From: a virus
Taxonomy: Duplodnaviria > Caudoviricetes
IMG/VR virus record: IMGVR_UViG_3300036911_000012
Span: 1 to 58,680 of that record
Reading direction: 5' to 3' (one strand)
Length of the DNA stretch: 58,680 nucleotides
This document shows positions 4,155-55,467 of the stretch, piece by piece. The stretch's first letter is position 1. Each line of letters opens with the position of its first letter. The translations under genes were made by a program, and so were the position numbers. The notes under the pieces were generated by a model. The model was not told the origin of the DNA, made no database searches, and saw only the letters and a program-made list of their open reading frames with translations.

Positions 4155-5489
4155 ATGGCATACTTGCAAGACACCGACGCCAAAGTCTCAGGCGAGCAAG
4201 GCCAGTGGCCCCGGCTCAAGCTCGATCACGTCCAACAGGCCAAGTGGAACGAGACCCGCACGGCGGTGCTGTGGTCGCAGCCCGCGTTCGCCGACATCTG
4301 GTACTCGATGATGACCGATAGCAAAGGCGAAACAGCCTGGTTTACGGATCAAGTCCCTATTGCGGCGACGGATGACCATTACCTCTACCTCAACCCTAAG
4401 ACGTTCTTCGAGTACAAGCTCGCAACTCGCGTGTTTGGGTGCTGCCACGAAATCCTGCACTGCATGTTCGCGCACTGCACGCAGCTCCATCACTTGAGCA
4501 AGAAGGGCGTGGTGAAGTACGCCGATGGCAAGGAACTCCCGTTCGACAACGAGACCTTTCAGCGCAGCATGGATGCGGTTATCAACGCGATACTCGTGGC
4601 GTCCAACGTCGGCGAGATCGACCCCGCATTCGTTCTGGACAAACGCATCCCTGCCGACATGAGCGTGCTCGACGCATACCGTGTCATGTATGTCAAGCAG
4701 CCCCCGCAGCCCAAGAGCAACAAGGGCGACGGTGGCGCCAAGAGCCAGCCTACTCCTGGGGGTAAGCCGGGTGGCTACGACGAACATCTGCGCCCCGGCC
4801 AAGCTGAGGGCAAGGACGAGAACGAAGCGGAGAGCGGGCGCAACGAGACAGAATGGCGTACGGCTGTGGCCGCTGCGATGGCGTCCGCGCGCATGCAGGG
4901 CAATCTGCCCGGCACGCTGGAACGGCTCTTTGGGAAGTTGATGACGCCAGAGGTGGACTGGACGGACTTGCTGCGCTCGGCGCTCACTCGCAAGCTCGGC
5001 GTGGGCGGCGGCTCGTGGGAACAGCTCGACCCTGCCATGGTCATCCGTGGCATCGGGTCGCCTGGGCGCGTGTCGTTTGGTGCGGGCCGCATCGAGGTCG
5101 CCGTGGACACTTCCGGGAGTATCACGCAGAGTATGATGGACAGGTTCATGTCGGAGGTCGGCGGTATCATCGACGATGTGCGCCCAAAGCGGCTCGTGCT
5201 TACGCAGTGCGACTATGTCGTGCACGAACGCGTCGAGTGCGACGATGGCGCAGACCTCCAGCGTAAAATCCTGGGCGGCGGCGGCACGGCGTTCGCGCCG
5301 GTGTTCAAGCGTATCGCCGAAGAGGATGACGAGCCCGACGTGCTTGTGTACTTCACGGACGGATACGGTTCGTTCCCGCCCAACCCCGGCTACCCAGTTA
5401 TATGGGCTAACATCACTAAGGGTATCAGCGACAGCCACTATCCTTTCGGAGAAGTGGTGTTCGTGCCCCTCACCAACTCCAAGGAGTAA
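4155..5489 (+). CDS. DUF2201-type metallopeptidase plus VWA domain protein
   Basis: HEILH zincin motif, MIDAS DTSGS, GGGGTAF, YFTDGYG; start at the MAYLQ ATG (~4155) after AGGAG. Confidence 0.85.
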   Translation: MAYLQDTDAKVSGEQGQWPRLKLDHVQQAKWNETRTAVLWSQPAFADIWYSMMTDSKGETAWFTDQVPIAATDDHYLYLNPKTFFEYKLATRVFGCCHEILHCMFAHCTQLHHLSKKGVVKYADGKELPFDNETFQRSMDAVINAILVASNVGEIDPAFVLDKRIPADMSVLDAYRVMYVKQPPQPKSNKGDGGAKSQPTPGGKPGGYDEHLRPGQAEGKDENEAESGRNETEWRTAVAAAMASARMQGNLPGTLERLFGKLMTPEVDWTDLLRSALTRKLGVGGGSWEQLDPAMVIRGIGSPGRVSFGAGRIEVAVDTSGSITQSMMDRFMSEVGGIIDDVRPKRLVLTQCDYVVHERVECDDGADLQRKILGGGGTAFAPVFKRIAEEDDEPDVLVYFTDGYGSFPPNPGYPVIWANITKGISDSHYPFGEVVFVPLTNSKE

Positions 5490-8570: not shown

Positions 8571-8586
8571 TCGCCTTACGCGAGGG

Positions 8587-9130
8587 GGCTCTCATGGACA
8601 CACCTATCGGCAAGGCGAGCGAGTCGCTGTTTATGGGGCTTTCCGTTTTTTAGCGTGGAATCGCTCCGTAGCGCGATGAAGGCAATTCCGGTTTTCAACG
8701 TGGAAAAGAAGGAACAGATACGATGAACATGCATGAATTTTCCCGCGAAAACCTGGCCCGATGCACTTCGCCGAATGGCTTCAACCACCCTCTCGCGTCG
8801 TGGTCTCTCTCGGACTGGATGACGGCGACGCTCGGCGAACTGGGGGAAGCGGCCAACGTCTTGAAAAAGCTCAATCGCGTCCGCGACGGCATCCCCGGCA
8901 ATGCGGAGACGCCGGAACAATTGCAGGAGATGTTCGCGGACGAGCTGGCCGACAGCTTTATCTATCTCGACCTGCTGGCGCAGGCTGCTGGCGTCGATCT
9001 CCCCGCCGCGATCCGCAGCAAATTCGACCGTACCAGCGGAAAGATCGGATACGGCGGCTAGCCGGATTTCCACGCTCCGAGGCTCTCATGGACACACCTA
9101 TCGGCAAGGCGAGCGAGTCGCTGTTTATGG
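8587..9130 (+). repeat. 50-bp perfect direct repeat (8587-8636 and 9081-9130) flanking the MazG-like gene
   Basis: GGCTCTCATGGACACACCTATCGGCAAGGCGAGCGAGTCGCTGTTTATGG occurs twice. Confidence 0.92.
8723..9061 (+). CDS. mazG: MazG-like nucleotide pyrophosphohydrolase
   Basis: GELGEAANVLKK and DELAD..IYLDLLA acidic motifs; AAGGA RBS. Confidence 0.8.
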   Translation: MNMHEFSRENLARCTSPNGFNHPLASWSLSDWMTATLGELGEAANVLKKLNRVRDGIPGNAETPEQLQEMFADELADSFIYLDLLAQAAGVDLPAAIRSKFDRTSGKIGYGG

Positions 9131-9324
9131 CGCAGGGCGTCCTCGTAACCGCATGCCCTTGCGGATGCCACACTGTCAAGCTGGCATTCGTCGACGCGGC
9201 GGGCGTCATTGGCGCAATGGCCTCACTTACACCTCGCAAAGCTGTAGCTCTCGGGGCCGACCTGGACACGGTGGGCTTTCAGGTTATGGCTGGGGAAGGG
9301 TCCGACCATGAACATAGAGCTTAA
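9088..9324 (+). CDS. Hypothetical protein with CPCGC motif
   Basis: ATG at 9088 after GAGG, inside the second repeat copy. Confidence 0.6.
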   Translation: MDTPIGKASESLFMAQGVLVTACPCGCHTVKLAFVDAAGVIGAMASLTPRKAVALGADLDTVGFQVMAGEGSDHEHRA

Positions 9325-18854: not shown

Positions 18855-19168
18855 GCGGTATGGGACGCAGAGACGACATGCGGGCGTATATCCTATCTCG
18901 CGTTTTGGTTATGCCCAACGGGTGTGGCATATGGCAGGGACGCAGTTCTGGGACAGGACGAGGCGGCGGATACCCCCGCTTTGACTACGACGGGGGTACT
19001 ATGGCCGTCCATCGCGCGTGGTGGATATTGGAGAATGGCCCGATCCCCCCACGCAAGCAACTGGACCACACATGCCGAACGCGCATGTGCATATTTTGCA
19101 CTGAACTGGTCACGCATAAGCAGAACCAGAGACGACGTGCAAAGTTTTCATGTAACTCCAAGGAGTAA
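18851..19168 (+). CDS. HNH endonuclease
   Basis: GC.IWQG, GYP, VHR..W, LDHTC...C, HKQN. Confidence 0.8.
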   Translation: MSGMGRRDDMRAYILSRVLVMPNGCGIWQGRSSGTGRGGGYPRFDYDGGTMAVHRAWWILENGPIPPRKQLDHTCRTRMCIFCTELVTHKQNQRRRAKFSCNSKE

Positions 19169-20168: not shown

Positions 20169-23100
20169 CTACTGCACATTGTACATCGACTTATACTCGT
20201 CGAGCAAGCGCTTACTTCTATTGGTCACTCGCTGCCCCAGCTCATATGTGGCAGGCTTGCCCGCGTTTTGCAAAGTTCCAGAGCTGATCCGCTGGTCCGC
20301 AGGCACGCCAGCATTGAACGCTGATATAGCTTGCATGGCTTTGGCCTTGGCCGCGCCTGTGGCCCCCACCCACCCCTGTATCAGGGTTGCTCTTTCTTGG
20401 GATAGATTTTTTGCGGCTTTCTCGGATGCCCATCGGGCCGCGTTGTACTGCGCAGCGTTGGCGGGGTTGAAGCCAAGGGCCTGTGTAGTAATCTCGGCAG
20501 GGCCGACCGGAGCCATGCCCGGCTTATCGCTCCGTGTGGGTTTGCCGTAGACCCCAAGGCGAGCAGCTTTAAGTAAATCTGCAAGTGCTTTAACGGGCGT
20601 CGCTTTTTCAAAGGCCCCCTCCCAGTCTCCGTGCATGGCGGATTGCGACGCGTCGAGCGTGTCAGTCAGCATCGACCCCGGAGCCCCCGCCACGGTATCG
20701 AGCATATAGTTTAGTGTGTCTTGGGGCTTGTTGGAGGAGGGCTCTCCGAAGGTCAGCAAGCTACCAAGTCCGAGCCTGTGGTGTACGTCCACGCTCAAAG
20801 GTCCCAGAGCACGCGATAGGCCGTGCATGACGATCTCGCCCATCTGCGGACCAACAAGCGCAGACATTTCCTGTTGTGCCTTGTTCTCCAAATCATCCCA
20901 GTTTGTATTCGTCACGCCTAGGGCATTTGCCAGCATGACGGGAGCCTTGATAAGCTCTGTCGGCAGCCCGAGCACGCCCGCCATGGCCGCGTGAGTGGCG
21001 ACAACGCCTGCAAAGCTCCTCGCGGCTTGCGCCCTTACTTCGGGAGTATCCCCCTTGAACGCTTGATACAAGTTGCGTCCGAGCAGGTGGTATATCATCT
21101 GCGGGAACTGTTTGAACTGTAGGAAAGGCCGCAGCGACTGGTTGCGGAAAATAGGCGCAGCGTTGGTTGCCGAGTACAGCCCTTGCGTGTTGGCGAGGGT
21201 GTCCTTGGCGTAGCGCACAGCGGCTTGGTGGTTGCCGCCATTCTTGCGCAGCTCCAAGCGATACGCCGCGACCGCTTCGGCTACACGGTTGATACTCTCC
21301 GTGGCGCTGGTCAGCTCTCGAAACGCCCGGTCAACGCGCTCCATACCCGCTTGCACGCGGGTAGCATTCTCACCGAAGTGCCCAACCTCGAACCCCGCGT
21401 CGGGGTGGATATGCCCCGTCGCTTCGAGGTCCTTAATCATCGCGAGCACGCCAGACGAGTCTTTTACGTCCGCCAACTTACTCTTGAAGTAACCCAAGAA
21501 ATTGGTTGGCGAGGTGTCGTTCTTGAACACCTGCGCCATGCCCGCGACGCCCTTGGCGAGCGCAGGCGACACGCCTCCCATGTCTCGGTATGAGCGGTAC
21601 AGCTCGCGATACGCTTGCCCGAATCCGTGGCGAGCCCCTAGCACTGGTCCCGAGATCATGCCGGGGTGGGTCAAATGCAGCAGCAAATGCGCAGGCGACA
21701 TCATTCGTTTCCAGAATGACACGGCCATAACTTTCTGCCAGAACGGCGCAAGTCGCCCCGAATACTCTGGCGAGCCGAACCCGTAGATGCGCGACTCAAG
21801 TTCCTGGTGAGCGGTGCGCCGTGTAAAGGTCAGACCGTCTAAGCGGTTGGCCTCGATCTTGTCTTTCATCTTCGACATGTTCGTGTCGATAACGTCATTG
21901 AAGTCGGCGCGCGACCGTGCGGCGGCTGACGCCCGAGAGTAAGACGTGAGCGTGCGGATGATATCATCCGAAGCGCCTGCGACGTTGCGACGCTTGAGAT
22001 AGTGGGGCTCAAGCCGGTTGCCCGCGCGCATAGTTATGCTGGCCTCTGCCAGGGACTTGGCAAGGAGCGCCTTCGCCGGGTCGCTGAGGTCCTTGCGGCG
22101 GTTCACGGCGTCGATAAGCGTCTTGACCTGCGGCGACGACAACGAGTAGTCCACGTCTGGGTTGAGTCGTCTCTTGTCGATACCCGAAACGTTCTTGAGT
22201 CCTGAGTCGATCATCGCTTGTCGGATCGCTTTGATTTCGCGTGGCGTGTCCGCAAACTCGACATGGCTTCGCTCGACGCGCACTTGGTACTTGGCGACTG
22301 GCGAGCCGGCAGTGCTGATGGCGTCTTTCAACGCGACCCGCTCGCCTGTCAGTGGGTCGTAGTGTACGATCTTGGAACTGGTGGGCAGGTCTTGCGAAGC
22401 CGCGTATTTGTGCGCCTCCTCGCGCGTGCCGAACTCCACCGTGTCTTTGCCAATCTGCTTGGCGTTGGCGGGTACGTTCAACTCGTGCTCGCCTGTCACC
22501 ACGTAATCCCCGAAGCGTTTCATGGGGGCGTAGAACCCTTGCTGCTTCTGAAACTCAGTGGCGTCCTTGAGCGCCTTGCCAATCCCAAGCGCTTCGTAGT
22601 GGTTGCTGTCTTCCTCAGTCAGCTTGCCATCGAGCGCCCGCTGCACCACATCGTCGACCGTGGAACCCTTGGGGGCGTCATGCCCTTTCAGGACGGCCTC
22701 TAGGATCGCTTGGGAGCGCTCCTCATGCTCATTCTTGTAGTAGTCGCGCAGCTGGGCCCAGAGGTCTTTGAGGTCTTGTGGTAGGCTCTCATAAAGGGCC
22801 GCAAGTTCGGGGTGCTTGGCCCGCGCCGCCCAGTTATGCATGGCCCCCTCGGACTCGTCTTTTACGCCTTGTGCCAAACGTAGGTGGCTGTTGGCTTTCG
22901 AGTCAAGCGCTTGGTCAGGATGCAAATTGTACGCGGCTGAGTCGCGGAGGAGCTTGATAAAGGTGTACCACCCCTTGGCTCCCTCGTACTGGCGGCGGGC
23001 GACATAGAGCGCCTTGGCGAGATCGTTGGCCGGTTGCAGGTACGCGCGCATCCGCATACCCATCTTCTCGATGGCGTCGGTGACTTTGCGCATCGGATTG

Positions 23101-26100
23101 GTTTCGTCAACCGGCCCGAAATGCTTCTCCCACATTTGGCGCATTTGATCGTTCGCCAGGAACTTGACGCCCTTCTCGATAAAACCTTCCTGCGTGGGAG
23201 CCGACGCCATAATCTTCTGCACCCCCTTACTCGCAAGAGTAAGGGCTGCATGGCGAGCGCCTGCCTCTTGGCGGGGGCGTGTTACGGCGTTGTCGTCTTC
23301 GGACATACTTGCGCGAAGGGGGCGGGTAGCCCTGTTGAGCCGGTCGGCGTACTGCATCCCCGAGAGCGGGTCTTTGCTCCACGACAAACGCTCAGCGGTC
23401 GCCAGCGCCGCCTCAAGCACGTTTGAAAAGTGCGGAGGGAGGCCGATGGCCATACGCGCCATGGCGACTACGCCCGACCACAGCGACGCCCTACGAAATT
23501 CTTTGATCCCGAACTGCTCTGCCAGCTCTTGCGAGATTGGCGTCTTGTTTGCGATAGCTTGCAACTCCGGGTTGGATAGCATTTCCGCCAAAAACTCGTG
23601 TTCGTCAGTCATGGCGTACATCCCCGCCACATCTGGACGCGCCGTCAACAGCTCTCGCATGAGCCCCTGCAACTGCAACGTCGTCACCGTATCGCGCTCT
23701 AGAGCATCCGATATGGCGGCGTGTACGGCTTCGTGCATGACAGTGTGCATACGCCCACTTTCAGGAACTTCCGCGTTCATAACGATATGCCGCATGGCAG
23801 AATCATAGAACCCATACACACGCTGCCCCGGTAGGCTAGGAGGATGCAGTTCGTGGATGGTATCTTGGTCCACCCAATGCACAGGAACGTCGCCCACCAG
23901 GGCGTTGAGTTTCCGCGTGAGAAATGGGAGTAACCTGCTGGAGGTACGGTTGGTTGGAGGGAGATATTTCGTATCGAGGATATCTCCAACCCGACTCGTT
24001 TCGATAGGAGAGAACTTCTTGCCGTCCCAGGCCGTCACTGTGCCCGGCACCTCTGGCAGGGGGGCGCGGGTGGCGGTGTGATCGTCGAGAAACTCCACGA
24101 GCTGCGCTCGCGGCATGGCGACTATAGACTCGCGACGTGACGGGCCGGACCCGTCCGAGAACTGCTTGTCATAGAGCGCCGTAGCTTCCTCTGGAGACTT
24201 GACGCCCAGGATGACCTTATGCTCGTCAAACGCGCCGGTCTTAGGGTCGTGCTGGTTGATGACGTAGCCCGTGCCTGTCTCGCCTTTGGGGCCTACGAGC
24301 ACGTCAACGTGGTCGCCGTCAGCGCCTTTGGTGCCACGGATGTAGCCGTAGTCTCCGGGCATTTCGCTAGCCCAAGTCTTACCTTTGGGAGTAACCCCAA
24401 CGCGCTCTGCTCGGTCTCCTAGACCTAGCTCGTCGATCATGCGTTGTGCATCGATCTGGCGTATGCCCAAGTGCTCGGAAATTTGGTACGGCCACGGTTT
24501 CACGCCGCCGTTTTCAATGGCATCCTTTACGAGTGCTAGTGCCTTGTCGTGGGGCACGGGTTGGTTATTATGTCCCCAGAGAATATCTCCGGGTTGCGGT
24601 TTTCCACTGGGGCGTACCGCATCGCGCACCTGGTTATACCGTTCCATAGTGCGCCAAGACGCGTCGGAACCGGGCGCGGGTTTACTCTCGGGAGCAATTG
24701 TGCCAGTGCGGATCGACCCTTTCGGGTTTTCAATGCTTATCGGCAGCCCGTCTAGCGTCACTTTGCCCTTGGCGTAGTTGCCTGCGAGCTTCTGTGCTTC
24801 CGTTGGTTCGGTGTTTGTGGCCTTGCGGGCGGCGGCTATTTTGTCTTTGATGGCTTGACCGCGCGTCTTTTTGGCTTCGACCTTAAAGCCTGTGGCCTGC
24901 TTGCCCGCCACAAACGTGTCGCCCTCGATCTTGGGGGCCGGGCGCTCGCGCCCCTCGCCCTGCATGGGGGGTTCAACATCCTCACCCTGCGCGGCTTCGT
25001 CGCCGAGATTGACAACCGCCCCCTCGTGCTCACTATCTCCGCCCATACCCGCCAAGCTGTCGGCTGTTACCTTATCGCCGCGTATAGCATCACCCTCGCC
25101 GAACGACGCTTCTTTGTTGGCAACCGCACCCGAATGCTCAATGGCGTCGTAGTTCTCGGGATTGGCGCTCTTGCCCCAGTCCGGTACGCTCATTTTATCG
25201 ATGGCGTCGGATGCCGTTTGTTTTTTGCGGGCGTCACCCTCAGCCCGTCGCTCGGCTAAAACTTCCTTCTTATACCCAGCACGCAGGTCAAACTCGCGCT
25301 TCATAAACTTGGCGATATGCTCCGTTTCCAATTCTGGTTTCTTTGCGATGCTGCGCATAAGGTCGCGCGCTTCGGCGAGCAGTACCGCGCCAGTGCTGTG
25401 CTCGCGAGCCTCATCGTTGTTGTCACGCAGCCCGCCAGATATCTTAACGCCGGCCTCTTTCGCACGTTCCAGCATTGCTTTGGCGCGGTTTAACAGTGCC
25501 GTGCGTGCGCCAATACCCCCTTTAACCGTGGGGTTGACAGCGCGTGCTTCCGAAGGGGCGGGGGGAAGTTCCGCCATGATCTTGTCTGCGGCTAGGTTAT
25601 CCGAAGCCCGCTTGGCCTTTTCGGGTATGGTCCGATGCCCTGCGGCGGGCGGCGGGGGCGGCTCGGCGGCCTTGAGTCTGGCCGCAACTTGTGCTTGTGC
25701 TTCCGCGATACCACTCTCGCGCGCTGCCCGTCCTTGGGGGCTAACATCTTCCAATACCCTGCCAATGGGTGCGGGGCTACTTCCAGGAGCGGGCGCACGC
25801 GAAGCTGCGCTCTCAGTGGGCGAGAACGTCTGAGCCAGTGCGCCCGCAACCGGGGGAGCGTTGGGCACCAACTCATCCTCGGGGCCTTTAGTCCCTGGAG
25901 GCGTCTGCGCTGCTACGCGATCAGCCACAACCTTGGCCGGGTCCTCAACCTGTACCGTGCTATCGGGAGCCTTCCCCGCCTCCAACACTTGAGTCTGCAC
26001 AGGCGCAGTTTCAGTCGTCCCCGCTGCCGCCTTAAGCTCGGTGCCGTCCGGGGCGCGCTCTGTAACCGCAACGGGGGTCTCACCGGCAGCGATGCGGGCA

Positions 26101-27551
26101 GTGGCGTCGTTCTTGGTAACGGGTCCTAGCCCAAGGAGGCCCCCGAGGGTATCATCCTTGACGGCTTTCTTGATGGCCGGAAGCCCTATCAGCTCGGGGT
26201 TGTACTGAATAATGTCGTCGCCGAGCTTGGTCTGTCGCATGCCTGCGGGCTTAGGCAGCACGCCCTCGCCGCCCTTGTAAATCATAACCGGGCGCTTGCC
26301 GTCGACAAGCTCTTGCTGCTGCGCCTTGAGCGTGGCGTTGGCCTCGGGTACAGCGGTGTCCGTGGCAGGCGTGGGGGCGCTGGGGGCCTTACTTGCGGGA
26401 GTAGGCGTTTGGTCCTTGGGGGCGAGCGCCGCCGCTATGGCCGGGTCCACGGGTGACGGGGTGGGGGGCGCAGACGTATCCGTAGCGTCAGGCGTCGTCT
26501 TGGGCGGCGCGGCGCGTGAGGATGTGCCTGTGTCAGGAGCCAGCTCGTCAGGCTTGGGATACGAGCGTTCACTGCCAACGGCGTTGGACTGGCCGGGTAC
26601 TGGCTTGCGGGTGCTCTCGGGCCTAGTAATGAGCCCGTGAGCCGCCCCCAGCAAGGCCCCAAGCCCCATCTGCCCGAGCGTGTCCACTGCCCACGCATAC
26701 GCGTCAACGTTTGGCTGCACACCGGCTTGGGTTAACGCTTGCTGCTCGTCAAGGTCCACGCCACCAGCGTACACCCCCATACCAACAGCACCCTCCACCG
26801 CGTTAATGCCTGCGTTGGCGAGCCTGCCCCCCGTGCCCGTCGCACCACGCGCCACTTGACCTGCGATACCGCCTGCACCCCCGATAGCCCCGACGAGGGC
26901 TGCGATGGCCACGCGTCCATCGCCCATGACGTATTGTATAAGATCGTCTTTAGCTTGCGTCTCAGTGAAACCCGCTTCGCGTAGGTTGCGATAATTGAGC
27001 GCGCTTTTTTGCAAGACCAAGTCGGGGGTATCTTTTATCCGGCTGGATACGTCCCCCACAACCTGCGAAACGCTGAGTCCTGCCCCCATACCCATTGCCG
27101 TCGTCGTACCGGCTACTTCCCCAAGCGCGGCGCCGACAATACCTGCGGGTAGGGCCGCTGCTACGAGCGCGGGGGCCATGGGAGCTGCCTTGAGCAATGC
27201 TCCCGACAAAGGATGCTGCAAAAACGTACCCGACATAATTGACGAGTTTACGGTGTCGGCAGCGCTGGGGGTTAGTCCAGACATCAGGTCTGACGTGCTG
27301 TTGTTGAGACTGTTCTGCGCAGCGCTGAACTGTGCGTGGGCGACTGGGTCCGAGTCTGGGCTCGACGTAAAATACGCCCCCGTCCCCGCCAACCCCGAGG
27401 CCAGCCCCGTTACCCCCGTACCGAGCATGCGCCCATAGTCAGAAAGTGTAGGGGGTTCATATGGCTGGTTGAGCGCCTTGAGCGTGTCGCTGGGGTTGGA
27501 CGAAGATGCGTCCGGGTCAGCAAACCCCAGTACCGATATACTGTCAGCCAT
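20169..27551 (-). CDS. Large polyvalent internal virion/ejection protein (2460 aa)
   Basis: Inorganic pyrophosphatase-like domain (AGNYAKG, IENPKGS, DYGYIRGTKGADGDHVDV, FDEHKV), zincin HEAVH...EFLAE, PLxRFG-like PMKRFGDY; last of a series of internal proteins. Confidence 0.85.
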   Translation of the reverse strand: MADSISVLGFADPDASSSNPSDTLKALNQPYEPPTLSDYGRMLGTGVTGLASGLAGTGAYFTSSPDSDPVAHAQFSAAQNSLNNSTSDLMSGLTPSAADTVNSSIMSGTFLQHPLSGALLKAAPMAPALVAAALPAGIVGAALGEVAGTTTAMGMGAGLSVSQVVGDVSSRIKDTPDLVLQKSALNYRNLREAGFTETQAKDDLIQYVMGDGRVAIAALVGAIGGAGGIAGQVARGATGTGGRLANAGINAVEGAVGMGVYAGGVDLDEQQALTQAGVQPNVDAYAWAVDTLGQMGLGALLGAAHGLITRPESTRKPVPGQSNAVGSERSYPKPDELAPDTGTSSRAAPPKTTPDATDTSAPPTPSPVDPAIAAALAPKDQTPTPASKAPSAPTPATDTAVPEANATLKAQQQELVDGKRPVMIYKGGEGVLPKPAGMRQTKLGDDIIQYNPELIGLPAIKKAVKDDTLGGLLGLGPVTKNDATARIAAGETPVAVTERAPDGTELKAAAGTTETAPVQTQVLEAGKAPDSTVQVEDPAKVVADRVAAQTPPGTKGPEDELVPNAPPVAGALAQTFSPTESAASRAPAPGSSPAPIGRVLEDVSPQGRAARESGIAEAQAQVAARLKAAEPPPPPAAGHRTIPEKAKRASDNLAADKIMAELPPAPSEARAVNPTVKGGIGARTALLNRAKAMLERAKEAGVKISGGLRDNNDEAREHSTGAVLLAEARDLMRSIAKKPELETEHIAKFMKREFDLRAGYKKEVLAERRAEGDARKKQTASDAIDKMSVPDWGKSANPENYDAIEHSGAVANKEASFGEGDAIRGDKVTADSLAGMGGDSEHEGAVVNLGDEAAQGEDVEPPMQGEGRERPAPKIEGDTFVAGKQATGFKVEAKKTRGQAIKDKIAAARKATNTEPTEAQKLAGNYAKGKVTLDGLPISIENPKGSIRTGTIAPESKPAPGSDASWRTMERYNQVRDAVRPSGKPQPGDILWGHNNQPVPHDKALALVKDAIENGGVKPWPYQISEHLGIRQIDAQRMIDELGLGDRAERVGVTPKGKTWASEMPGDYGYIRGTKGADGDHVDVLVGPKGETGTGYVINQHDPKTGAFDEHKVILGVKSPEEATALYDKQFSDGSGPSRRESIVAMPRAQLVEFLDDHTATRAPLPEVPGTVTAWDGKKFSPIETSRVGDILDTKYLPPTNRTSSRLLPFLTRKLNALVGDVPVHWVDQDTIHELHPPSLPGQRVYGFYDSAMRHIVMNAEVPESGRMHTVMHEAVHAAISDALERDTVTTLQLQGLMRELLTARPDVAGMYAMTDEHEFLAEMLSNPELQAIANKTPISQELAEQFGIKEFRRASLWSGVVAMARMAIGLPPHFSNVLEAALATAERLSWSKDPLSGMQYADRLNRATRPLRASMSEDDNAVTRPRQEAGARHAALTLASKGVQKIMASAPTQEGFIEKGVKFLANDQMRQMWEKHFGPVDETNPMRKVTDAIEKMGMRMRAYLQPANDLAKALYVARRQYEGAKGWYTFIKLLRDSAAYNLHPDQALDSKANSHLRLAQGVKDESEGAMHNWAARAKHPELAALYESLPQDLKDLWAQLRDYYKNEHEERSQAILEAVLKGHDAPKGSTVDDVVQRALDGKLTEEDSNHYEALGIGKALKDATEFQKQQGFYAPMKRFGDYVVTGEHELNVPANAKQIGKDTVEFGTREEAHKYAASQDLPTSSKIVHYDPLTGERVALKDAISTAGSPVAKYQVRVERSHVEFADTPREIKAIRQAMIDSGLKNVSGIDKRRLNPDVDYSLSSPQVKTLIDAVNRRKDLSDPAKALLAKSLAEASITMRAGNRLEPHYLKRRNVAGASDDIIRTLTSYSRASAAARSRADFNDVIDTNMSKMKDKIEANRLDGLTFTRRTAHQELESRIYGFGSPEYSGRLAPFWQKVMAVSFWKRMMSPAHLLLHLTHPGMISGPVLGARHGFGQAYRELYRSYRDMGGVSPALAKGVAGMAQVFKNDTSPTNFLGYFKSKLADVKDSSGVLAMIKDLEATGHIHPDAGFEVGHFGENATRVQAGMERVDRAFRELTSATESINRVAEAVAAYRLELRKNGGNHQAAVRYAKDTLANTQGLYSATNAAPIFRNQSLRPFLQFKQFPQMIYHLLGRNLYQAFKGDTPEVRAQAARSFAGVVATHAAMAGVLGLPTELIKAPVMLANALGVTNTNWDDLENKAQQEMSALVGPQMGEIVMHGLSRALGPLSVDVHHRLGLGSLLTFGEPSSNKPQDTLNYMLDTVAGAPGSMLTDTLDASQSAMHGDWEGAFEKATPVKALADLLKAARLGVYGKPTRSDKPGMAPVGPAEITTQALGFNPANAAQYNAARWASEKAAKNLSQERATLIQGWVGATGAAKAKAMQAISAFNAGVPADQRISSGTLQNAGKPATYELGQRVTNRSKRLLDEYKSMYNVQ

Positions 27552-27572
27552 AGCGCTTACTCTCGGGGGTAA

Positions 27573-30500
27573 TTACCAAGTGGGGATGGCGCTTGTTGCG
27601 GGGCGGTTCATCGGCGATATACCCGATACCCCTCCTGGCACGTATAAACCCGGAGGGCGTGAGAGCGTGCGGTTGCCTGGACGTTCCGCAGCAAAATCTC
27701 TTGCGTTGACTGCGCTTCGGGCGTCCGTGATGGCTTTTTCGTCTGCGGCGGATTTTGCGTCCCGTTCGGCCTTAGCCGCAACCTTTGCTTGTATTTTGGA
27801 TGATAGGTCGGAGCGCACGGCTAGGATTTGCTTAAACCTCGCAGTAGGAACCGTGATCGGCGCAACGTGGTCGTCGTTGAACGTAATGAGCGTTCTCCCG
27901 CCAACCCCATCCATCCACGGCGTAGCCTCGAACGGTAGTTTGCCGTCAGGGCTCTGCCCGGCGACCATCTTGTACACCGCACTCGCGGCTTCGTCCGGGT
28001 CTATTTGGTTGTGTCTGGCAACGTCTACGATAGCCCCACGCAGCGCCGTGGCGTTTTGCGCAGGCACTACTTCTGAAAAAGCGTTCTTCGCCTCCGTCGT
28101 AGGAGCGCCGGACGGGTCCACCATCGTGGGGTTGAATACTTTGAACATGGCGTTCGTTGCGTCTGTTGTCTCGTCTGGACTGACGGGCTTGTCCACCATA
28201 GCGCGCAACTCCGCCGCCTTCTCTCGGTTACTCTCAAGTGTAGCCGCCGCCTTCTCTCGGTTACTCTCAAGTGTAGCCGCCGCCTCCCGATCCCGAGCTG
28301 CGCGCACCTCTGCCGACGCATCCGAGTGCTGCTGGGTGTCTTTCTGCGCAGCCGCTCGAAACTGCTCAGTCTGTCCCATATTTAGCGCCTGCCGCGCACC
28401 CGTCAGGCTGTCCTGGTAGCCCTTTTGCGCGTTGGATACCATTTCACCGTACATCTTTTGTGCGGGCGCATAGACGGTTTGGTTCCAGTCGTTGAGCTCG
28501 TCCTTGTACTTCTGTTCATATATTTTGCGACGCGGATCGTTGGCCGGCAGGGCATCGTAATACGTTCTGTCGGGCTCAGGGCGTTGCGCGAGCGCCGGGT
28601 CGAGTATCTGCGCCTTGTACCCTGCGATCTCTTGGTTGAGCTGCGCCTGATGCGCGTTGACAATGCGCGGGTCAATGTCCGCCATGCCCGGCTGCGGCGA
28701 GCCGTCGAGCGACACAGCTTGCGCGGGGGGTTGCGCAGGAGCCTGTGGCATGGGCGGAGGAGCCGGTGCGGGGGGCGCAGACGGCGGGGGAGTGGGAGCG
28801 TGGCCAGCCCCCGCACCGCTCTGAGCCTGGACCGGGATAGCCTGCGGGCCGCTACTCCCAGGAGTAACCGGGGGCGCAGGTCCGTTAACGGGCACTGCCT
28901 GCGGGGGTTGCCCTTGCGCAGGAGCTTGTCCATTCGTACGCCAGTTGCTGAGTTTGCCGAGCGCCGCTTGGTCAGCCGGGGTCATCTGCGCAGCTTGCGC
29001 CGCCCCCTGCGGATCATACTTCGCAGCCGCCTCGCTGTACAGCTTCCAAACCATTGTCCCGTCTTTGAGGCCAAGAGCCGCCTGCATGATCTCTTGCGGT
29101 GCAACTTCTTTCTGCCACACCGCTCGGTTCTGCATGTTGAGCTGGGTAACAGTGTAGTTGTCGCCCGGCCCTTTTTTGGCCTGGACTGTGTTGCCATCGA
29201 TCACGCTATCGTATCCCTTGACGATGGCCTTGACGGCCCCATCCGGGTCGCCCTTGTAGAACATCTTTATAGCTTCGTCGCCATGATGCGCAGCGGCGTC
29301 CCGCGACGCCATGAGGATGCTCGCGGCGGCCTTGTCGGCTTCCTGCGGCATGCCGTGCTGAATGTACCACTGGTGCATGCCCTCAAGGCCAGCGATATCC
29401 GCCATGTCGCTTCTGAGCGTGCCCGTGGGGTCCTCTGCCTTACGCAACGCCTGCATTTCTTCAGGGGTCGCGCTGTGATTGTGCATCACATCGAGCGAGC
29501 CGGTGGGCACTGCGCCATTTTGCGCTTGAGCCCCGCCGAGCATCTTCGCAATATACGACATGCCTCCCTGGATCGCTGCGGCGGCGGTGGAGGCGAGATT
29601 GCCGTGTTCATCCGCAATCTGCGGAGTCTCCGGGTCGGGCTCTTGACTGGGGTCGTGGTTCATTCCCGCGTAGTAGCTAGAGGGGCCTCCCGTTCCACCC
29701 CTCCCACCCCTACCCGTGGGGCCGCCACCGCCGCCCATGCGCATCCCAGAGCCTCCCAGGCCCGCTCCAATGCGGGGGAGGCCCCCCATCAGGTATGGGT
29801 TGCTGGACGCAACTTGAGGGCCTTGCGCAGCGGCCTGCTGGTCCTGTGCCCCCGTGGGAATAGCGCCCTGCGGGGGTTGAATCAGCGCGGGAGGCGTACC
29901 TTGGGGAGGGGCCACGCCCGCAAGTTCGGGGTTGCCCGTATTGCCACCCGCGCGGGCGTCTTCGTAGTCCGCTGAATTGGCCTCGTTATCGAACTGCGCG
30001 TCCTCACTCTCGTCGTCGGTAGGGCCGCCCAAATCGAACGCTTTGACAACGCCCCCTTTGGCCATGCGCTGTACAACGCCGCCCTTGGCAGCGGCGTACA
30101 CATCGCTCTGATCGCTCTGATCGTTCTGAGCCACAGGGATTGCCTGGGGCTCCACTTGGGGGTCTGCTTGCGCGTGATCCTTGGGGATGACGATAGGCGG
30201 AACCGCAGGAGTATTCTGCGGGTTACTCTGGGGAGTAGCCGCGCCGGGGGTTGGGTTCGCAGGGACAGACGGCGGCGCGTCATGCACAGGCAGCGCACTG
30301 GTAAGGTCTGCGGGTTTAGTGGGGGGCACCGGAGGCAGCGCCAGGGGCTGCGTTGCGGGGTGCAGAGCCATGGGCGCACTTGCCGCCACTGGAGCCGCCT
30401 GCCCAATAGGGACAAAGCTCTTGCCCGCAGAACCATCCGCGTTTTCAGTCGTAGCGATTGCCGCCGAGATCTTGGCGCGCACAGCCGGGTCCGACATATC

Positions 30501-51688: not shown

Positions 51689-54100
51689 TCAACCTCCGTA
51701 GGCCCATTGATACGTGCCTGAAACGTTCGTGCAACCCACGCGCTGCGAACTCGTGCCGGTCGAGGAAGGCACCCCAAGATACGTCGGCGAAGCCGGGGCG
51801 TTGCTTACGAACGCTTGCAACCCGACCAAATAAGCCAAGCACGAAGGCAGGGTTCCTCCAATTGTATAAGTTGGGTATATTGGAAGCGCAAAGCCTCCGC
51901 CGGCCTGATTGTAGTTGTTCTGCCCTGTTACCGTCGTTGTCGTGCCGGGCAGGAAATTGCTGTTATACGCTTCGTTGTTTACGAACACACTATTGCCAAA
52001 CGTCGCACTGGAAAACGTCTCATCTGGGCTGTTGGACCATGTGTTGTTTATAAACTGTAGATAGTTATTCGAACCGCTAAATGCAATTTGTTGATTGGCC
52101 GCATTCTCAAAGTCCGACGACTGCACAACGCCATTCGACGTTCCTACGAACGACAAGTTGTTGTAATTACCTTCTATATCAGCGCCAATTATCGACCACG
52201 CTTGCCCCCCGCCAATCGCGATAGCCGCACCTGCCAACTGATTCCCGCTATTAAAGATCCCATCTCCCCATATACGCGCCGCGTTACAACTGCTACCAGT
52301 TGAGCAATCAATCGCATTCCCGTTGGTGTTAACTATCAAATTGTTGGTGATATACGGTGCGTAGGATGATGAAATAGCCAGTCCAACGTTCCATCTACCA
52401 TCTATCGTGACGCGATCGACCACGAAATCGCTATTGTTCCCGACGCGGATTGCGATACCACTTGCCGCACCGTACTGATCCAGCCGCATGTTCATTACCG
52501 AGAAACTCGTATATGCGGCGTAGTTTTGTGCGGGGGATACATACTTAATGCCTGTTGTTTGCGTAGGAGCTTCCCATCGGAGTGCCGTGCAGCCGCCTTG
52601 ACCGGAAATATTATACAGCCCGTAGTCGCTCTCTAGTAGCGTAGCAGTCAACAGCGCCGTCCCGCACGGGAGTTGCAGTTTCGTTCCCGACGAAGCCGTG
52701 AGCGCGGCCTGAAGCGCCACAGTGTCATCGTGCGTCGCCAGTCCGCCGGAGAGGGTCTGACTTGATGCGTTCGCCAACACGAGAGTGTTCGTGCCGCCGC
52801 CAGAAACGATAGTCGAGAGCAAAAACCCATTCGTCGCCGTCGCGCTCGGCGCTAGCGCCAGCCAATCCGGGCGGTGTGAATCGTTTTCATTGTTGTCTTT
52901 CCATGTCGAGGTCGAAGTGACCCCGACGAATTGCATGAGGTTTAGCGCAGCGCCGCTGGAGACTGTCGTCAGGTTGAACGTGGCGCCGGTGCCCGCCCCT
53001 GACGAACTGGCTTGTCCGACTGTCGATGCCGCAGGTTCCCAATAGTACCCCGGAGCCGTTACCGTCACCGTCGCGACCGCAGAGCCCGAGAGCGTCGCTA
53101 CAGTCAGCACCGTGCCATCTGTGAGCGTTATGGTGTCCCCGACCGCGTACCCGGAGCCCCCCGCCGCCACGTTCGCCGCGCTCACGACGAAAATGCTGCG
53201 TGACACGACGTAACTCGACGGAATCGTCCCCGTCCCTGGGGGGTTCCACGAAATTGTATTATAGTTTGTCGGTGACAGCAGAGCGTTGCCCGTCGAGACG
53301 CTGACCGGCGTTATCGCAGGCCCGACTCCGCCGTAAGCATCGACGGCTTGCACGGTATAATAATACGTCGTGCTACCTGTCGCCCCCGTTGGCGTTATCG
53401 TCAGCCCTGTTGGCGGGTTGAGCGAGAATGTCGGACCGCAGCCATTGACGCGAACCCCCTCGCCGGTCACAAAATCAATCGCGGCGCTGAGCGATATGTT
53501 CGCCGAGCCCGAGGCGCACGTTGCCGACACGCTTTGACCCGACATAGAGACGTTGGTCAGTGCGACCGGGAGCGGCTGGTAGAGCGCTGCGCCACCCAAA
53601 GGCGTCGCCCATGTGCCGTCGCCGCGCCAAAACGTCGTCGATGCAGCCCCCGTCCCACTGTTGAGATTGGCGACCGGAAGATTGCCGGTGACCTGTGTCC
53701 CGAGGTTGACGGTCGCAGCCGTCGCCAGCGCGCCGAATGCAACCCCGCCGGTTTTTGTGCATGCCAGCGCCAATGATCCTGATGAGTTTGTGCAATCTCC
53801 GGTATGAGCGGGTTCCTGCGCGGCCTGTAGCGTGCCCGTCGCCTGCGTCGACAGGTTGACCGTGGTCTGCGTCCCTGCATATATCTGGGCATCCAGGGTC
53901 GTTAAATTCGTCAGGATGCTGTTGAACGTCGCGCCCGGCACGCGCCCGAGCCCGTTCGTCCAGGGCACAGCATTGATCTGGTTCTGCACCGACGTGGGGG
54001 TGACCTGCGCCTGTGCGCAGAGGCTACTCCCAAGAGTAAGCGCCAGGGCCGCCACAAGCGCCATAACACGCGCCAATATTTCAGTCACGAACGAGCCCAT
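51689..54100 (-). CDS. Tailspike/fibre-like beta-helix protein with Sec signal peptide
   Basis: ATG at 54100 after GGAG; [31 protein letters not shown]|Q; [21 protein letters not shown], Asn-rich beta-helix rungs. Confidence 0.8.
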
Positions 54101-54119
54101 CCGCCTACTCCGAGGCTTC

Positions 54120-54167
54120 ATCACAGTTTTTAGCATAGTTTTTATCACAGTTTTTATCACAGTTTTT
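54120..54167. repeat. 12-bp tandem repeat, four copies (ATCACAGTTTTT, one degenerate)
   Basis: Visible between the two fibre genes, overlapping the stop at 54157. Confidence 0.85.
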
Positions 54168-55467
54168 GGCACGCCAGAAGAACGACACTCGCCGCACGAG
54201 TTTCCGTCGTGCAGTTCGAGCACGCCACGCCAACAGCACTTGTAGGCTGTTGTTGATACGATGTTCCTGTAAGCCCCAGAGAAGCGCCACCTCCACTACC
54301 TGCCGTGGCGACAAAGCTGTACGACCCCGTAATACCAAGCGTGACAGGGCCAACCGCACTGCTCTCACCACCAGCCAGCACAGTTCCAGTTGGGTCGCGC
54401 CCAGCGCCACTGTCTATACCGCGCAGCACGCGCCCACGCGCGTCTGCGATTCCGCTCGCCCCGTTCGCGGCAGCCCACCCGTTCGGACACGTGGCGAGAT
54501 TAAACATGGCCACTTCCCCCGGAGGCGCAGTTGGTCCGGTCGACGTAAGCACAAACTCAACTCCGTCAAACGTAGCCGCCGCAATCTGCCCTGGAACCAG
54601 CTCACCCCCTGCCATAGGAGCTACCCCAGCGGGGGTTTGTCGGTACAAGTTTTCAATCGAGGCCGCCCCTACAGCTATGGTCGTAGGCCCTGTGTTGAGC
54701 GTGGCCGGGGTGAACACAATACTCGTGCCATATGTATTGGTAAACCCCGTGGGGACGGTAGCCCCCACAGTTATGGCGTTGGCCGCCCCGCCTATAGAAC
54801 TTCCAGTAAAAACGTATGACCCAAGCCCAGGTGGCGGGTACGCGAGCCCCAGCATGGACGCCGTAACGCTGGCGGGGCCTAAATTGCCCGCCGCTGCGCC
54901 ACTGGCAAGCATGGACGCCGTAACGCTGGCTGGGCCTAAATTGCCCGCCGCTGCGCCACTGGCAAGCATGGACGCCGTAACGCTGGCGTGGCCTAAATTG
55001 CCCGCCGCTGCGCCACTGGCAAGCATGGACGCCGTAACGCTGGCGGGGCCTAAATTGCCCGCCGCTGCGCCACTGGCCATTTTCGACGACGTAACTGCAC
55101 CGGGAGATATGACCGTCGCAAACGACCCCAAACTTGTTAGCACGTCCCCCGTAAGCACGGGAGCTTGCGCAGATTGAAGGGTGCCAAGGAGCGAGGTGGT
55201 CTGTACTTGTCCTGTGGCAAATATACTGGCCCCAGGAGCAGTTATGGTCGCGCTGTATACCTGCCCAAGCACTACGGTCAGGTTCGTCAGGATGCTGTTG
55301 AACGTCGCGCCCGGCACGCGCCCGAGCCCGTTCGTCCAGGGCACAGCATTGATCTGGTTCTGCACCGACGAGGGGGTGACCTGCGCCTGTGCGCAGAGGC
55401 TACTCCCAAGAGTAAGCGCCAGGGCCGCCACTCTGGCAACGTTGCGAAGTCGTAATAGTCGCAGCAT
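54157..55467 (-). CDS. Tail-fibre-like protein with tail-collar domain and Sec signal peptide
   Basis: [28 protein letters not shown]|Q; collar motif [17 protein letters not shown]...[16 protein letters not shown]. Confidence 0.8.
54851..55077. repeat. 57-bp coding tandem repeat, four copies ([19 protein letters not shown])
   Basis: Units start at 54851, 54908, 54965 and 55022. Confidence 0.92.

Follow-up and report, generated by a model that had tools for sequence, protein, structure and literature searches.

Phage polyvalent proteins carry pyrophosphatase-like domains of the InPase family (Pfam PF18823). Where Iyer et al. 2017 (PMC5512222) treat the fold of these domains, solved classical pyrophosphatases are described with an additional beta-hairpin in the strand 1-2 connection, while the polyvalent clade is described without it. 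Here, we compare these systems with the InPase domain encoded in the virus record IMGVR_UViG_3300036911_000012 (58,680 nt, rated 96% complete; called the window in the following, i.e., the whole stretch of DNA that was analysed). The domain is part of a 2460-aa polyvalent virion protein (20169..27551, minus strand), and its beta1-beta2 loop holds an in-frame insert of 102 codons (24396..24701, minus strand; aa 951-1052).

The InPase domain and its insert

The window protein agrees with the PF18823 domains as Iyer et al. (PMC5512222) portray them in the profile, in the DYGY, DGDxxDV and DEHK signatures and in being a giant virion protein encoded among ejection and structural genes. The Pfam match to PF18823 (E 6.6e-40, 136.5 bits versus a cut-off of 26.8) comes in two stretches, and the excised domain alone reaches 145.1 bits. 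The first stretch covers the N-terminal part with strand 1, i.e., ...PTEAQKLAGNY...ISIENPKGSIRTG (aa ~915-950; 24702..24809, minus strand), which has invariant columns in both alignments that we used (A1, A2). The second (aa 1049-1153, profile positions 30-132) covers the C-terminal part with DYGY, DGDHVDV and FDEHK (aa 1053-1153; 24093..24395, minus strand). The metal-binding acidic residues are kept, given the invariant Y, D-x-D-x-x-D and F-D-E-H-K columns of the same alignments, and DGDHVDV aligns with DGDPIDV, i.e., the DGDPxDV metal site, of solved classical pyrophosphatases. Judged from these columns, the catalytic signature of the domain is intact despite the insert.

With the classical family I pyrophosphatases (PF00719, e.g., from E. 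coli), the domain has the OB-fold core, the metal-binding aspartates and additional structure in the strand 1-2 loop in common. Their loop piece, however, is a short beta-hairpin and not a helical module of 100 aa, and in sequence the two are no more than marginally similar (E 0.0045 to 0.05). For the C-terminal half of the domain (24093-24377), a match is also seen to aa 660-733, i.e., the C-terminus, of the portal protein gp19 in PDB 9b41 chain L (E 6e-13), which is an experimental structure for this InPase clade.

The original prediction for this locus, made from the sequence alone, had held that IENPKGS is normally found close to DYGY and that about 100 aa intervene here. This agrees with the homologues. 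The insert is missing from all six phage homologues that were aligned and from L007, the IMG/VR sequence nearest to the domain (63% identity, short loop), i.e., IENPKGSxR(S/T) runs directly into G-V-x-P-x-G-K-x-W...DYGY, where the window has ~102 residues in between. We further scored the IENPKGS-to-DYGY spacing by pattern in 96 of the 119 homologues listed (P0005-P0123, out of 1367 found); the other 23, each covering at most 45% of the query, did not fit the pattern. Among the 96 scorable homologues of this list, the spacing is 25 in 91, 27-28 in four and 123 in a single one (P0005), compared to 127 in the window. That is, the window protein lacks the short 25-residue strand 1-2 connection that is typical of the PF18823 clade, and where Iyer et al. 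(PMC5512222) describe a clade without hairpin, its loop holds 102 aa that recur in only one of the 119 listed homologues. In the phage collection, none of the 462 matching records covers at least 80% of the InPase domain. The insert is real and rare, and the possibility that homologues commonly have this region is not borne out among those listed. The alignments further indicate that the long loop is a derived state inside the InPase clade, which is no argument against membership.

P0005 (2583 aa) is encoded on a 61.6-kb contig and is 54% identical to the window protein overall. Its insert of 98 aa occupies the same site and is 41% identical, with conservation concentrated in the C-terminal 45 residues (~60% identity), while the N-terminal half is poorly conserved. 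VKPWPYQ (7 residues) and LGIRQI (6 residues) are identical in both inserts, and the latter is followed by A.RMI with one variable residue. Beyond P0005, no relative was found. A phmmer search of 1.84 billion representatives returned only the window protein itself and two matches that turned out on inspection to be spurious (low complexity or RCC1 repeats). No relative appeared in a word search of near-length proteins, with a profile of the two inserts among longer proteins (197-2000 aa), or in IMG/VR, JGI metagenomes or 185,579 genomes. Likewise, Pfam (E <= 10), PDB sequences and the ESM Atlas gave no match, and within the window blastn and six-frame tblastn find no second copy but only the insert itself.

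The explanation that we favour, with a probability of roughly 0.55, is a nested accessory domain that was acquired once, before the phage of the window and that of P0005 split, and whose junctions carry palindromic motif copies that arose or were renewed in place. In this virion-packaged polyvalent protein, the InPase beta1-beta2 loop would have gained a lineage-specific accessory domain, a folded and selected module composed of one helix, a beta-hairpin and a three-helix bundle resembling a helix-turn-helix (HTH). It sits in a loop that is already known to accept extra structure, since classical pyrophosphatases have their hairpin there according to the fold description in PMC5512222. In the host, after ejection, it may act as an adaptor that holds the intact pyrophosphatase beside nucleic acid or a partner protein. 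Such a function is consistent with a suggestion made in PMC5512222, in its treatment of these domains, that InPase domains clear pyrophosphate or process nucleotide-like substrates early in infection. The phage group, in turn, would maintain a palindrome family for some DNA-level purpose, with variant arms in related phages, and the junction copies would have arisen or been renewed in a change-tolerant Pro/Ser/Gly-rich linker as part of this genome-wide upkeep.

We modelled the insert with AlphaFold2 from the two-row alignment of window and P0005. The model consists of a helix (aa 969-978), a beta-hairpin (990-999) and three further helices (1001-1013, 1021-1028, 1032-1041), with predicted local distance difference test (pLDDT) values of 76-81 for aa 985-1044. 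A prediction of the whole InPase domain from its single sequence was too poor for use (mean pLDDT 51). The helical nature that had been proposed for the C-terminal segment is thus recovered in the predicted helices. The HTH-like three-helix core (aa ~1001-1041, DKALALVKDAIENGGVKPWPYQISEHLGIRQIDAQRMIDEL; 24429..24551, minus strand) is the block best conserved between window and P0005. By the comparison with P0005 and the model, the insert is a conserved, folded domain, for which an HTH-like adaptor is a reasonable reading; DNA binding by it is a hypothesis.

As an alternative, the insert could be neutral filler, i.e., a tolerated loop expansion without a function of its own. The loop accepts insertions across the wider pyrophosphatase family, homologues of the insert are found in two phages only, the N-terminal half has diverged, and the ESM Atlas recognition score of the insert is below the level reached by most known families. 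On the other hand, the C-terminal block exceeds the protein-wide identity of 54%, two peptides are kept without change, and the model is compact at the pLDDT values given above. Given this, we consider mere filler rather improbable.

With regard to the likeness to winged-helix and FtsK-gamma folds put forward in the original prediction, a part stands: the model has an HTH-like three-helix bundle with weak fold matches, while no link to FtsK-gamma by sequence is seen, i.e., PF09397 gives no Pfam match to the insert at E <= 10. The model superposes on FtsK-gamma (2ve8_A) with Z 4.5 and a root mean square deviation of 3.0 A for 52 residues, a score that many other HTH proteins reach as well. Rare FtsK winged-HTH (wHTH) and other HTH domains in polyvalent proteins are reported in PMC5512222, and in the homologue P0009 the InPase domain is closely followed by FtsK_gamma (PF09397, as listed). 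There, the module is separate, whereas that of the window is nested inside InPase. The pairing of InPase with a winged helix is thus recurrent, with neighbouring domains and no sequence similarity to the insert in P0009: hhalign of the insert alignment (A3) against P0009 yields a probability of 0.4% and aligns elsewhere.

Several observations weigh against the nested-domain reading. The best VIA-align rows for the insert model (FapR with Z 5.7, KorB with 5.4, Z-alpha, sigma-54 RpoN, ArgR, FtsK-gamma with 4.5, ScpB) are almost all HTH or wHTH DNA binders, but their Z values of 4.0-5.7 are all under 8 and below the level that the tool treats as specific. Foldseek finds no match to the model at E <= 0.001 in PDB or BFVD. 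The HTH core is slightly acidic (5 K+R versus 7 D+E), which is atypical for a DNA binder. Furthermore, the GC content at third codon positions (GC3) of the insert is 0.57 versus a gene mean of 0.69, i.e., within the lowest 3.4% of gene windows, which is compatible with a foreign origin. The remaining points of this kind concern the motif copies and stand with them below.

Motif copies at the junctions

The window carries many copies of a 16-bp palindrome, TTACTC-N4-GAGTAA, and two of these had been noted at 24379 and 24682, 303 nt apart and in the gene frame as VTPKGK and IAPESK. Position, distance, frame and peptides all proved correct. The upstream copy on the N-terminal side of the protein, TTACTCTCGGGAGCAA (24682..24697 in plus coordinates; minus-strand reading IAPESK, aa 952-957), has one mismatch to the palindrome. 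The downstream copy, TTACCTTTGGGAGTAA (24379..24394 in plus coordinates; minus-strand reading VTPKGK, aa 1053-1058), has two and lies within the ancestral InPase loop residues G-V-x-P-x-G-K-x-W (consensus of ~96 listed homologues). In the homologue alignments, the insert boundaries coincide with both copies within 1-2 codons, and a deletion between the copies, which removes 101 codons, would leave a spacing of 26 versus the usual 25, so both expectations on this point held. That the two copies have their frame in common is unremarkable, given that 23 of the 36 intragenic copies use it.

For a single boundary, the chance of a copy this close is ~0.028. For both, this amounts to ~0.028 squared if the insert is taken as pre-specified and to ~0.02 when allowing for ~25 window-specific indels. 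In addition, ancestral-type loop DNA from seven homologues shows 6-8 mismatches at the 12 fixed motif positions, so several directed changes were needed for the downstream copy, and the idea of a predisposed loop holds at the peptide level only. The junction peptides of P0005 (VAPPAN and VAAGGK) are not motif peptides and would each need at least 3 mismatches; since these junctions were compared as peptides only, decayed motif copies may still be present in their DNA. Finally, the counts of copies by frame and location that we use depend on heuristic gene calls.

Part of this evidence favours a motif-mediated acquisition, in which a ~300-nt palindrome-flanked segment (alternatively, a circular cassette carrying a single palindrome) entered the InPase loop by recombination at a motif copy there and left the order motif-cargo-motif. 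The palindromes would then be shuffling sites comparable to boundary sequences or integron attC. Such an event fits two copies that stand in direct orientation and in the same frame at the junctions, a coincidence that is nominally unlikely, as well as the number of directed changes that the downstream copy would otherwise require. It also fits the atypically low GC3 and a short G-V/T-x-P/A peptide that is repeated at both ends in both insert-bearing proteins. Local instability around the motif is seen in a perfect 33-nt tandem duplication with a motif copy (28211-28276).

The wider comparison, however, speaks against it. Using 44 of 47 ortholog pairs with the related genomes G001 and G003 (three with less than 30% identity were dropped), we observed 49 indels of at least 10 aa, a set that includes some fragmented alignments across the InPase module, which is missing in G001 and G003; of the 98 boundaries of these indels, 5 have a motif copy within 20 nt, versus 5.5-6.8% expected. 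Our insert is the only indel seen with motif copies at both ends. No copy is found at the edges of the InPase module (aa ~787-1170), which is missing in L087-L090, and the two inserts specific to P0005 (73 and 129 aa) have no flanking motif-like peptides. Most copies stand in conserved ungapped sequence, e.g., all four DNA polymerase copies and two in the polyvalent protein (aa 1437 and 1870). The junction copies themselves agree at 12 of 16 bases, no more than 5 of them in a row, and their flanks show no homology. A donor copy of the insert did not turn up in any of the searches reported above, and no recombinase tied to the motif was identified. Motif-like peptides also turn over fast, such that the window protein and P0005 have only one such position in common. 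The original claim that the motif mediates recombination is thus unsupported beyond this one case, given non-motif junctions in P0005, no enrichment at indel boundaries and copies in conserved ungapped sequence. We regard acquisition through the motif as unlikely, and the arrival of the insert probably did not leave the junction copies behind as scars.

Taken further, the palindromes could be working sites of cassette shuffling, with the insert as a motif-flanked module caught in place and the motif helping to build giant multi-domain proteins. We hold this more general claim to be decidedly doubtful. Its bolder sub-variant would have the nested HTH recognise the palindrome and tether the ejected pyrophosphatase to the incoming phage genome.

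The direct copies might also serve as sites of precise DNA excision or RNA bypass, such that InPase isoforms with and without the insert are produced. The distance of exactly 101 codons and the near-normal connection left after removal are in line with such a switch. The joint of a 303-nt deletion, though, was not seen in Logan contigs, where rare variants and uncovered parts are invisible, and near-identical contigs from three other studies (X3, X4, X5) cover the insert interior or the upstream junction, none of them joining across. Moreover, the junction copies are too little alike for homologous recombination, and the insert is conserved at the protein level in P0005, whose junction peptides differ. 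A switchable insert is thus very improbable.

Rickettsia palindromic elements are in-frame palindromic insertion elements that occur in multiple copies. The insert resembles them as a palindrome-associated in-frame segment in a surface loop of a conserved protein. In contrast to them, it is single-copy, and only the 16-bp palindrome is repeated, not the cargo. What one would expect of a multi-copy mobile element (of the Rickettsia type or a miniature inverted-repeat transposable element) is not seen, since the only relative, that of P0005, is at the same site.

Three further candidates were rejected. An intein would begin with Cys, Ser or Thr and end in His-Asn ahead of another such residue; the insert ends in ...AERVG with V as the next residue, and Pfam shows neither a Hint nor an intein family at E <= 10. 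An intron or a translational bypass was rejected on sequence grounds. A captured small gene is unsupported: P0005 does not keep the in-frame ATG that follows the upstream copy at a distance of 34 nt, and the gene reads through the downstream copy in a frame other than that which yields a TAA stop from intergenic copies.

A genome-wide palindrome family

Allowing up to 2 mismatches, TTACTC-N4-GAGTAA has 58 copies in the window versus 1-2 in five shuffles; a stricter pattern yields 45 matches versus a mean of 0.42 in 100 shuffles. Position counts reveal an almost fully symmetric palindrome, TTACTC-YYRR-GAGTAA, and since they do, the idea of a motif oriented with transcription was dropped. Copies occur about once per kb in genes and spacers (e.g., 5474-5489, 19153-19168, 23227-23242, 27557-27572). 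About 14 of the 58 end 2-22 nt ahead of a start codon and contain AGGAG and often the TAA of the upstream gene. Of the 36 copies within genes, 23 are read as x-T-(P/L)-x-S-(K/N), nine use the second open frame and four the third, and in all four of the latter the TAA is altered. The spacing of copies is more even than random (coefficient of variation, CV, 0.63 versus 0.98), with none of 5000 simulations as low.

Related phages have variants of this site. The syntenic relatives G001 and G003 (L094-L100) contain 70 copies each of TTACC-N6-GGTAA, again at even distances (CV 0.71 and 0.73; P 0.002 and 0.003). In the cultured Rhizobium phage RHph_TM3_14A (MN988472.1), the core TTAC-N8-GTAA is matched 32 times, mostly by TTACCT-N4-AGGTAA, versus 4 in the control. 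Some copies stand at homologous protein positions, e.g., in one column TTACTCTTGCGAGTAA of the window corresponds to TTACCCAGATGGGTAA of L089, with the site retained and both arms changed together. The exact motif 15-mer has 79 loci in IMG/VR, each single-copy, i.e., at chance level. We infer that the palindrome is a maintained genome-wide site, which would most simply be a binding site for a dimeric protein. A literature search by the name RHph_TM3_14A found no paper; as it was the only search for prior descriptions of the palindrome, novelty is not claimed.

Mycobacteriophage stoperators and the start-associated sequences of Cluster K reportedly comprise dozens of 13-17-bp sites per genome and are specific to phage groups; many start-associated sequences are said to directly precede start codons and to enclose the Shine-Dalgarno sequence. 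The window site is alike in copy number, in its placement at start codons and in group specificity. It differs in being a full 16-bp palindrome with ~36 of 58 copies in coding sequence, even spacing and compensatory arm changes.

Some further repeats of the window contain palindrome copies. The perfect 33-nt tandem duplication at 28211-28276 (11 codons) lies in the gene of a 1141-aa virion protein, with one copy per unit. A 176-nt direct repeat (53880-54055 and 55256-55431; 92% identity, 1376 nt apart) has a copy at the same place in each unit and appears to be an N-terminal segment common to two large minus-strand open reading frames (ORFs); five 57-nt tandem units and 12-nt repeats (54794-55135; 54117-54176) stand in between. 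Elsewhere, a 62-nt direct repeat (8578-8639 and 9072-9133; 92% identity, 494 nt apart) includes an ATG and ~15 codons, which points to two adjacent small genes that begin alike. Long 6-, 12- and 18-nt periodic repeats (GGCTCTGGCGATGGCTAT-like) occur at 1931-2308 in a 131-aa ORF and would encode a Gly/Ser/Asp/Tyr repeat protein.

Gene context and meaning for polyvalent proteins

The ORF with its translation, PHROG matches and neighbours define the polyvalent protein gene. Its PHROG matches include phrog_37402 (E 4e-199) and, at the C-terminus, the DarB-like phrog_10089. Among its neighbours are an internal virion protein, the 1141-aa protein, which has a transglycosylase region, the major head protein and the portal. 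These matches and neighbours assign the gene to the block of virion and ejection proteins in a podovirus-like genome, and the 2460-aa virion protein is probably ejected. The protein is a mosaic in which modules come and go: the InPase module (24020-25190, aa ~787-1170) is missing in the otherwise collinear orthologous proteins of four IMG/VR phages (L087-L090), and P0005 has its two further private inserts. Methylocystis and Methylobacterium provide the nearest named homologues of the 2460-aa protein, a hint that the host is alphaproteobacterial. The region 23900-25200 is found with identical sequence in two peat metagenome runs, possibly its source, and other studies of freshwater and peat have runs with near-identical fragments.

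What is new here is a variant of a known InPase domain with a nested domain, which is of modest interest, and the palindrome family seems more interesting than the insert itself. With regard to recombination the outcome is mostly negative, i.e., the palindromes behave as maintained genome-wide sites, and attention shifts to what may bind them. Polyvalent virion proteins are thought to deliver enzymes together with the phage DNA, and the role of the pyrophosphatase-like domain is still a prediction. The strand 1-2 loop of this domain is able to hold a whole domain, and a nested, conserved module that possibly binds nucleic acid offers a way to learn what the InPase enzyme may be brought near.

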